This document shows positions 21,001-24,000 of a stretch of 64,000 nucleotides of DNA, piece after piece (the first letter of the stretch is position 1; every line of letters begins with the position of its first letter). A program made the position numbers. The DNA lies in the NCBI RefSeq assembly GCF_003018115.1, contig NZ_CP027457.1; one strand, 5' to 3'. The stretch is from Escherichia coli. Lineage in GTDB: Bacteria > Pseudomonadota > Gammaproteobacteria > Enterobacterales > Enterobacteriaceae.

Positions 21001-24000
21001 CCATCGTCGCGAGGCTCCAGCATTACCAGCATCGGCATGTCGCTATAGCGGCGGCAGTAGTTGATAAAGTAGTCGCTGGGATTATCGAGATGAAACTCTT
21101 TTAAAATCACATGGCCCATTGCCATCGCCAGGGCGCTATCAGTGCCTTGTTTTGGTGCCAGCCACTGGTCGCACAATTTGGCCACTTCAGAGTAGTCAGG
21201 GGTAATGGCGATAGTTTTGGTGCCTTTGTAGCGTACTTCGGTAAAGAAGTGGGCGTCCGGCGTACGTGTCTGCGGTACGTTAGACCCCCAGGCGATGATG
21301 TAACTGGAGTTATACCAGTCGGCAGATTCCGGTACGTCGGTTTGCTCGCCCCAGGTCATCGGCGAGGCGGGCGGCAGGTCGCAATACCAGTCGTAGAAGC
21401 TTAAACAGGTGCCACCTAATAGTGACAGATAACGTGTTCCGGCGGCGTAAGAAACCATCGACATCGCCGGGATCGGCGAGAAACCGGCAACGCGATCCGG
21501 GCCGTAGGTTTTGATGGTCCAGACGTTAGCGGCGGCAATCAGCTGGTTTAGTTCCTGCCAGTTGGAGCGGATAAACCCGCCGCGCCCACGCACTTGTTTG
21601 TAGCTCAGGCACTTTTGCGGATCGTTCATAATCGATGCCCACGCCAGTACCGGATCGCTGTGTTGTTTGAGGGCTTCGCGCCACAGTTCAATCAGTCGTT
21701 TACGAATGAGCGGGTATTTCAGGCGGTTAGCGCTGTAAAGATACCAGGAGTAACTTGCGCCACGCGGGCAGCCGCGAGGTTCATGATTGGGCAGGTCAGG
21801 GCGAGTGCGCGGGTAGTCGGTCTGTTGGATTTCCCAGGTCACCAGACCATTTTTAACGTAGATTTTCCAGCTACAGGAGCCTGTACAGTTAACACCGTGG
21901 GTGGAACGCACGATTTTGTCGAACTGCCAACGCTGGCGATAGCTGTCCTCCCAGTCGCGGTTGCTATGCATCACCTGTCCGTGACCATCGGCAAAGGTTT
22001 CGCCCTTTTGTTTGAAGTAGCGAAAGCGATCCAAAAGTTTACTCATGACATGACTCCTGCTCCAGGAATGAATTGGGATCTGATGCCTTGTCGGATGCGA
22101 CACGGTTGTAGCCTGATAAGACGTGTCAGGCATCGATCTCTTATTTTTGGCTGAATTTCCGCCGACCATAAACCAGCCAGGTCAGTAGCACACAAACGAT
22201 GTAGAAGATTAAAAACACTTTCATCGCGCCCACTGGAGAGCCGGTCATATTGAGCGACATGCCAAACGCCTGCGGAATAAAAAAGCCGCCCACTGCGCCA
22301 ATGGCTGAGATAAAGCCCAGAGCCGCCGCCGTTTCGGTGACGGCTTCTCTCTGAGCTTGCTCATCACTACCGCCTTTCATCTTCACCCGATAAATGGTTA
22401 TCTGGCGAAAGATGACGGCGATCATCTGGAAAGTAGAACCACTTCCCAGACCCGCGGTCAGAAACAGCCCCATAAATACGGCGTAAAAGGCGATGAAATT
22501 ACCGGAGCCTGTGCCCGGTAAGGTAAGGAACAGCAGGGCGCTGAAAATCGCCATAAAAATAAAGTTGATCAACGTCACTCGCACGCCGCCGAATTTATCG
22601 GAAATAGCACCACCCACCGACCGCGCGATGGCACCGATAAATGGGCCAAAGAACGCCAGGCGCAGAATATTCACATCCGGGAACTGGGTTTTTGCCAGCA
22701 TGGCAAAACCCGCAGAAAAACCGATAAACGAACCGAAGGTGGCAAGGTAAAGCAGGCTCAGCAGCCAGAGATGCAGACGTTGTAACACAGGGAGCTGGTC
22801 GGTAATTGACGCGCGGGAACTGGCAATATCATTCATCCCTGACCAGGCGGCGATCGTAGCAATCGCCAGTAGCGGCACCCAAATCCATGCGGCATTCGCC
22901 AGCGAAATCACCGAACCGTCGGCCTGCGGTACGCCATTGACGCCGAGAAAGGCAAATATGGGTACAAAAATGACCAGCGGTGCAACCAGCTGCATCACAC
23001 TTACACCTAAGTTTCCTAATCCGCCATTAATCCCAAGAGCGCTCCCTTGCCTGGCTTTTGGAAAGAAGAAACTGATATTGCCCATGCTCGAAGCAAAGTT
23101 CGCACCTGCAAAACCGCATAGCAAAGCGATAACGATAAAGATCCCAAAAGGAGTATTCGGATTTTGCACGGCAATTCCAAGCCAGACGCAAGGAATAATC
23201 AGGATTGCAGTACTAAAAACCGTCCATCGGCGTCCACCGAATATAGGTACCATAAAGGAGTAGGGAACACGCAATAATGCGCCAGAAACGGAGGGTAATG
23301 CGGTTAATAAAAAGAGTTGATCGGTAGTAAAATTAAAACCGATTTTATTGAGATTAACGGTAACTGCGCTAAATAGCATCCAGACACAGAAGGCAAGAAG
23401 TAGACAACTGACTGATATCCAGAGGTTTCTTCGAGCAATATGTTTTCCTTTATTTTCCCAGAAGGCCGGATTTTCTGGTTTCCAGTCGCGTAAAAGATAA
23501 CGACTATTTTTCTCATTTTGCAGTGCCATATTGTTCCTCACATGCACACATTGGTAATGAAAAAAGACAAAACAGGAGGTAAGGCGCAATAGCCGATTAT
23601 TAGAATTAAGGATGAATTGGGTGAAGTGCTGATTGAAAGAATAGATAAGAAAGCGTAACCGCGGGGGCAGAATGGGGATTAAGCAGCCAGTTATGTGTTA
23701 CTAAATGTAACTGACAAGCTAGCCATTAAACGGGGGGTGATCTTTGAACGCATGTCATGATTCAACCCTTCAGATGATGAATCCAAAGGGTTGTATATTA
23801 ACTATATTCTTAACAAGACCAGACACTTATAGAATTAGTGATAATTTATTCACTAAAAAGGCCATGAGCTGGAGGAAAACGATCTGTCCAGAAAGTCTAT
23901 CGGTTCCTCTCTTATTGCCTCATTGTAATAATAGTTATTACAATAAGTATTGTTTATTTCATCTAAGGTCATATTTTTAATTTTTATATTCCTCTGGTTT

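Follow-up and report, generated by a model that had tools for sequence, protein, structure and literature searches.

A conserved element upstream of narU as the probable OmpR-binding site of the narUZYWV promoter

Introduction

The described systems closest to the narU upstream region are the OmpR-activated porin promoters ompF (sites F1-F3) and ompC (sites C1-C3). Their basic unit is 20 bp long and holds two half-sites of 10 bp in tandem, whose cores are (G/T)TTACA and G(A/T)AACA. The promoter downstream of this unit has a poor -35 element, and phosphorylated OmpR activates transcription. The narU region appears to be alike in all of these respects, and its OmpR peak belongs to the same ChIP-exo dataset as theirs. 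Unlike ompF and ompC, narU has a single 20-bp unit instead of three contiguous ones, and this unit is paired with a candidate sigma-S-type -10 element at a rigid distance of 67 bp. The target genes also differ: they encode nitrate reductase Z and a nitrate/nitrite transporter of the inner membrane, not porins. Moreover, the two cores at narU happen to be reverse complements, which creates a pseudo-dyad. A further relative is the RstA box TACATNTNGTTACA, known from asr and csgD, which is likewise a tandem TACA-type repeat in a 10-bp register recognised by a member of the same protein family. In contrast to that box, the second repeat at narU reads AACA, not TACA, in every species. The paralogous narK-narGHJI genes, again a transporter followed by a nitrate reductase, are controlled by FNR and NarL/NarP. 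The narU spacer, in contrast, holds no FNR, NarL/NarP or NsrR consensus, and narZYWV has been described as outside Fnr/NarL/NarP control (PMC7005491).

The regulatory link between OmpR and narU has already been published. ChIP-exo in K-12 at 0.3 M NaCl located OmpR in vivo on a 60-bp interval of narUZYWV (peak P10, 1542224-1542283, S/N 14.8, mode 'Act'), which was listed as a novel target (PMC5438342). The narU transcript collapsed in the ompR knockout, its FPKM falling from 38.1 to 0.81 (log2 -5.56, about 47-fold), and narZYWV went down by log2 -3 to -3.9 (PMC5438342). In ompR null strains of S. Typhimurium and E. coli, the gene that decreased most was narZ (95-fold, PMC6262077), and narZY was differentially expressed in an ompR mutant of S. 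Typhi. Seo et al. remarked that the activation of narUZYWV by OmpR might be unique to K-12 (PMC5438342). The present analysis leaves the known picture of OmpR and narU unchanged; it adds the base-level placement of the site, its reading as a tandem repeat and its deep conservation.

Materials and methods

The window analysed is a stretch of 64,000 nucleotides of Escherichia coli contig NZ_CP027457.1 (assembly GCF_003018115.1), and positions refer to it unless K-12 is named. Compared with complete E. coli genomes, it was 100% identical to strain F9792 and 92-96% identical to most others. The consensus sequences used were TTGAT-N4-ATCAA for FNR, TACYYMT (7-2-7) for NarL/NarP and AANATGCATTT for NsrR. 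The sigma-S extended -10 element is TCTATACT, with its C at -13.

A genome collection was scanned with NarU and 80 loci were obtained; Salmonella, the genus with the strongest expression data, was not among them. The ortholog set comprised the 31 loci whose NarU was at least 80% identical. The ChIP-exo coordinates of Seo et al. were taken as U00096.2, because the ompF/ompC peak and start-site values fit that version only, and an offset of +1978 was applied to reach NC_000913.3. As a check of this offset, the centre of the dtpA peak falls 3 bp from GTAACAGATTATTACAAAGG, an OmpR-type tandem site.

Results and discussion

The genes of this part of the window follow each other on the minus strand in the series narZ, narU, spacer, espR1, LRR pseudogene, yddL/OmpC-like porin and yddG.

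22141-23529, minus strand: narU coding sequence, 462 amino acids, first gene of narUZYWV, ATG at 23529
23530-23852: narU-espR1 spacer, 323 bp
23853-25106, minus strand: espR1, LRR type III effector, intact with 417 amino acids, corresponding to the K-12 yddK and yddJ fragments joined
23713-27871, no strand: 4.2-kb segment with espR1, the LRR pseudogene and the yddL/OmpC-like porin, lacking in about 22% of complete E. coli genomes
23697-23711, no strand: inverted repeat IR1, GTTAC-TAAAT-GTAAC, core of the probable OmpR site
23744-23765, no strand: inverted repeat IR2, TTGAA-N12-TTCAA, best regarded as a chance match

The initial annotation had pointed out the two inverted repeats as possible operator sites or parts of the yddK terminator region. 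The observation was real and is partly confirmed, and its interpretation was right in part. IR1, with GTTAC at 23697-23701 and GTAAC at 23707-23711 around TAAAT, lies exactly where it had been placed. IR2 exists as well, but about 9 bp away from the position first given (about 23735-23756). The distances to narU were correct, since IR1 and IR2 are 168-182 and 215-236 bp upstream of its ATG. The distance of about 100 bp past the yddK stop was also sound (88-109 bp for IR2); the gene concerned, however, is the intact espR1, with its stop codon at 23853-23855, and not yddK alone. As patterns, neither repeat stands out. The 323-bp region contains 7 perfect 5-bp inverted repeats with a spacer of at most 15, against 5.5±3.0 in dinucleotide shuffles, and 34% of the shuffles reach 7, so the narU-espR1 spacer shows no enrichment. 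What lifts IR1 above chance is its conservation together with the published binding data, not its symmetry.

The sequence around IR1 was compared with the OmpR motifs and with the projected ChIP-exo interval.

23692-23711, minus strand: very probable OmpR-binding site of the narUZYWV promoter, tandem half-sites GTTACATTTA / GTAACACATA, from motif, ChIP-exo projection and conservation
23670-23729, no strand: projected 60-bp OmpR ChIP-exo footprint of narUZYWV (U00096.2 1542224-1542283)

Read on the narU strand from 23711 to 23692, the sequence is GTTACATTTA followed by GTAACACATA, that is, two 10-bp half-sites arranged head to tail. The motifs obtained from ChIP-exo by Seo et al. in 2017 are KWWGTTACAT and the tandem form GTTACATTTTGTTACAT (PMC5438342). 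Read on the minus strand, 23695-23711 agrees with the tandem form in 14 of its 17 positions, and with up to three mismatches allowed this is the sole match in the 64-kb window (0.25 expected). The second half-site is GTAACA rather than GTTACA in all species compared, which counts against the OmpR identity. In local numbering of the K-12 locus, P10 spans 8203-8262 (centre 8232.5) and the 20-bp site spans 8225-8244 (centre 8234.5). The centre of the site is thus about 2 bp from that of the published peak, whose in vivo occupancy is taken from the literature and mapped here at the ChIP-exo resolution of a 60-bp interval, not of single bases. K-12 and the window are identical across the 20 bp. The literature searched contained no footprint, EMSA or site mutagenesis of this exact sequence with OmpR.

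The upstream regions of the 31 narU orthologs align poorly apart from two sharply conserved non-coding blocks. Block 1 is (G/T)TTACA(A/T)TT(A/G)GTAACAC(T/A)TAA, from 23711 to 23692 of the window, and block 2 is CTTTTTTATCTATYCTTTCA, from 23653 to 23634. The pattern TTAC[AG]N3[AGT]GTAACA is present as a single copy in 29 of the 31 loci, which represent more than 10 genera; every copy is on the narU strand, 172-188 bp ahead of the ATG. The pattern has no further occurrence in the 986 kb of loci, those of the narK paralogs included, and all the narK paralogs retrieved lack the OmpR-type element upstream, unlike narU. The carriers are Escherichia albertii, Citrobacter, Enterobacter, Klebsiella, Raoultella, Kluyvera, Lelliottia, Leclercia, Yokenella, Pluralibacter and Pseudocitrobacter. 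Conservation across Enterobacteriaceae, a check proposed in the initial annotation, holds for IR1, whereas IR2 fails even within E. coli.

The conservation of block 1 is asymmetric. Beyond GTAAC, six more bases are kept toward the promoter (ACAYTTAA) and none on the opposite side. The conserved sequence is (G/T)TTACAWTTR followed by GTAACAMWTA, as in a direct repeat, with nothing conserved before the first base. In the ortholog alignment, 16 of 30 sequences have T in place of the outer G of IR1, whose partner C is invariant, and the outer G-C "pair" is uncompensated in 18 of the 30. The asymmetry and the uncompensated outer pair argue that the dyad is incidental. The inverted appearance of IR1 arises because GTTAC and GTAAC are mutually reverse-complementary (GTNAC is self-complementary). 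Judged from the alignment, the conservation of IR1 is the signature of two tandem 10-bp units and not of a dyad or hairpin.

Two promoters have to be considered for narU downstream of this site.

23634-23653, minus strand: second invariant block CTTTCTTATCTATTCTTTCA, candidate sigma-S-type -10, C at 23644 and TATTCT at 23643-23638
23599-23625, minus strand: alternative sigma-70 promoter TTCACC ... TCTAAT, from genomic SELEX (Shimada 2014, PMC3946193)

The second block is at least 90% identical in most columns of 32 sequences. In 26 of 30 sequences the C of CTATYCT lies 67 bp from the first base of the OmpR site, in three others 66 bp and in the last one 68 bp, although the 46 bp between the two blocks are highly divergent. 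Within the block (CTATYCTT), TCTATTCT resembles the sigma-S extended -10 and is a candidate -10 element; narU is a member of the Crl/sigma-S regulon (PMC6469107). If -12 to -7 corresponds to 23643-23638, transcription would start near 23631, and the OmpR site would then occupy -80 to -61. The literature searched gave no mapped narU start site, and PMC5438342 reports no TSS distance for narU. The alternative promoter, whose TTCACC -35 was recovered by the promoter scan too, would put the OmpR site near -110; it is not kept outside Escherichia. Overall, the promoter and terminator scan returned promoter-like matches at chance level (4 against 3.2).

Considering these results, IR1 very probably belongs to the OmpR-binding site of the narUZYWV promoter, from which phospho-OmpR would activate transcription at a putative sigma-S-type -10 promoter. 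Under osmotic or acid stress, a phosphorylated OmpR dimer would occupy the half-sites at 23711-23692, and the bound protein would switch on transcription of narU-narZYWV. A site at about -80 to -61 would allow OmpR to contact RNA polymerase, as for activators of the OmpR/PhoB family. The promoter has just one conserved core element, the putative sigma-S-type -10 TCTATTCT, which follows the site's first base at a distance of exactly 67 bp. The suggestion that IR1 could be an operator was thus correct in the broad sense of a regulator-binding site, whereas nothing of the kind is supported for IR2.

The regulators named as candidates, NarL/NarP, FNR and NsrR, did not withstand the test: in 23530-23852 their consensus sequences gave 0 matches at 2-3 mismatches, and no exact heptamer was present. 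Consensus scans for FNR, CRP, NarL/NarP, NsrR, ArcA, CpxR and PhoP likewise returned nothing at IR1 or IR2. ArcA at IR1 was a tempting choice (TGTTA...TGTAA) and was rejected, since the repeats recur after 10 bp instead of 11. Several further patterns were considered and dropped because of the asymmetric conservation: LysR-type T-N11-A, GntR/IdnR half-sites (TGTTAC/GTAACA, with the wrong spacing), Fis and IHF.

The main competitor for the site is another protein of the same family. RstA, or a different OmpR/PhoB-family regulator, might use it with or instead of OmpR, as at csgD, where the overlap of RstA and OmpR sites is documented together with the RstA consensus (PMC4117788). The sequence TACATTTAGTAACA (23709 to 23696, minus strand) agrees with 11 of the 12 positions specified by the RstA box TACATNTNGTTACA, which is a resemblance rather than membership. 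The expression of rstA is also 2-fold lower in the ompR knockout (PMC5438342), and with the fit to the box this means that part of the effect on narU expression could be indirect. Against this, the direct data on in vivo occupancy at narU are for OmpR and not RstA, most other species carry TACAATTAGTAACA with a 10/12 match to the box, and the literature search found no paper tying RstA to narU in enterobacteria. We consider a role of RstA or a relative here rather unlikely.

The remaining readings concern the repeats as such. As a symmetric operator, the dyad GTTAC-N5-GTAAC would be read by a dimeric repressor or other regulator, e.g. of the LysR type with T-N11-A. The perfect 5-bp dyad is present in 12 of 30 sequences and TTAC-N5-GTAA fits the generic T-N11-A pattern; head-to-head binding of OmpR itself has been reported at some sites (PMC4117788). 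However, the conservation is not mirror-symmetric, running 6 bp further on one side only, the outer G gives way to T without compensation, and the FNR, CRP, NarL/P, NsrR, ArcA and CpxR consensus sequences are all unmatched in the spacer, which makes such an operator very improbable. That IR1 and/or IR2 act as RNA hairpins to terminate or stabilise the espR1 (yddK/J) transcript is extremely improbable. Both repeats do lie 90-160 bp downstream of the espR1 stop and IR1 is a 5-bp stem in the predicted fold, but the stems are weak (-3.9 kcal/mol for IR1 and -3.0 for IR2) and lack a U-tract, and the arms of IR2 are unpaired with each other in the minimum-energy fold of the region. The terminator proposed for yddK is accordingly unsupported for either repeat, as the intrinsic terminator scan of 23300-24100 called none. 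Furthermore, IR1 is kept in genomes without any espR1, and compensatory changes are absent from its alignment. A covariance search of Rfam with E up to 10 returned only three sub-threshold matches to eukaryotic miRNA/snoRNA families (E 1-7). Finally, 5-bp inverted repeats are no more frequent in this spacer than expected by chance, which suits IR2 well; that both repeats are functionless chance matches is nevertheless scarcely credible, because chance is excluded for IR1 by its presence in 29 of 31 loci at a fixed position and spacing and by the ChIP-exo data.

The preferred reading, a tandem OmpR site, assigns a coarse 60-bp ChIP-exo signal to a specific 20-bp sequence and provides a precise target for mutagenesis. 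As the site and its spacing are conserved among the narU loci of Enterobacteriaceae, the 'cryptic' nitrate reductase Z operon is argued to have been controlled by OmpR ancestrally. This agrees with the expression data from Salmonella and sits uneasily with the remark that the activation may be confined to K-12. A more far-reaching proposal, which we regard as doubtful, is that the narU region is an ancient and rigid dual-input module, with an OmpR dimer site and a sigma-S-type -10 held 67 bp apart in more than 10 genera and, nested between the two, the terminator of whichever gene is upstream (in most genera smvR). The pseudo-dyad of the module could allow head-to-head OmpR binding or sharing between RstA and OmpR. 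Such a module, if true, would contradict the published suggestion of an activation peculiar to E. coli K-12.

The conserved element also accounts for the endpoints of the espR1 island, of smvAR and of the B2-type deletion, all of which lie at its upstream edge. The 4.2-kb espR1-porin segment is missing in about 1,200 of 5,406 E. coli genomes, in which yddG adjoins narU, and the narU-side end of the segment is 1 bp past IR1. Since homology to the island-less genomes breaks at this point, IR1 was tried as an attachment or recombination site of the island. This was dropped, because the other junction has no copy of the repeat and the element is kept in genera with quite different neighbours. The junction is thus taken to reflect constraint, not mechanism.

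IR2 lies within the dispensable 4.2-kb segment, and neither E. albertii nor any of the other genera compared has it. In O157:H7 DEC4E and in M7424 the left arm TTGAA is changed to ATGTA, and M7424 also has TCCAA as the right arm. Its spacing is N12, against N4 for FNR, and no tested consensus fits. IR2 is best regarded as a chance match and not as a functional element. Its right arm overlaps a separate structure.

23763-23793, minus strand: hairpin downstream of espR1, 13-bp stem, 5-nt loop, no U-tract

This hairpin is the only strong structure downstream of espR1 (z = -2.66 for the region). It is kept in six island-positive strains of E. coli, among which one G-U pair is changed to A-U. A published mutation adaptive to ciprofloxacin, T1538580C, maps to 23792 in the hairpin. 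The idea that this mutation melts the hairpin was considered, and it probably does not, since the predicted energy moves only from -19.9 to -19.0 kcal/mol.

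Conservation of the OmpR site and the variable segment upstream of narU

It was reported by Seo et al. that narUZYWV is poorly conserved even within Escherichia and that its activation by OmpR may be restricted to K-12 (PMC5438342). However, NarU orthologs of 80–96% identity carrying the same upstream OmpR site (tandem half-sites, 23692-23711 on the minus strand) were found here in more than 10 genera, at fetched loci among L006–L035. The OmpR site is always the constant boundary of the variable region upstream of narU. In the window, this region contains the following segment.

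23713-27871: 4.2-kb segment with espR1 (an LRR effector gene), an LRR pseudogene and a yddL/OmpC-like porin gene

The narU-side end of the segment lies 1 bp from the OmpR site. Among complete E. coli genomes, about 22% lack the segment and have four bases, AAAA, in its place. ECONIH1 carries a distinct 12-bp deletion, the first base of which is the same narU-side endpoint. At this locus the porin is retained and the LRR gene is absent in E. albertii, and smvA-smvR occupies the place of the segment in other genera.

The window's strain is a member of a divergent E. coli lineage. Strain F9792 is 100% identical to the window. Over a 601-bp stretch, at least 99% identity was reached by only 5 of 5,427 records, and most of the 5,427 show 92–96%.

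Hairpins around the narU promoter

The loci of Enterobacter, Lelliottia, Kluyvera, Klebsiella and others have a further element between the OmpR site and the candidate sigma-S-type -10 block of narU.

L023 5791-6000 and equivalent regions of L017–L033: G+C-rich hairpin followed by a T-run

The arms of the hairpin differ by species in a mutually compensating manner, for example GCGAACCC...GGGTTCGC or GCGCGTT...AACGCGC. It probably serves as a terminator, nested within the narU promoter, for the TetR gene (smvR-like) lying upstream. E. coli lacks smvR and retains only a 3-bp remnant, GCG GTTA CGC.

Another hairpin, of 13 bp (23763-23793), is located downstream of espR1/yddJ. The ciprofloxacin-adaptive mutation T1538580C of BW25113, which reportedly increases narUZYWV expression up to 10-fold (PMC11417348), projects to its base at 23792; the OmpR site is located about 80 bp downstream of this position. 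The mutation changes an A-U pair to G-U, and the computed stability shifts only from –19.9 to –19.0 kcal/mol. For a minor sigma holoenzyme, Shimada et al. (2017) give a genomic-SELEX peak between narU and yddJ of K-12, at U00096.2 1542352; the table is apparently titled for the extracytoplasmic sigma factor RpoE. At the low resolution of the method, this peak maps near the hairpin at about 23798, with the OmpR site some 90 bp downstream.

Direct repeat in the narU-espR1 spacer

Two copies of an 18-nt direct repeat, 78% alike, are separated by 229 bp.

23601-23618: TAGAATTAAGGATGAATT, overlapping the SELEX-proposed narU -10
23830-23847: TAGAATTAGTGATAATTT, directly past the espR1 stop

The repeat is possibly due to chance, since the family has two copies.
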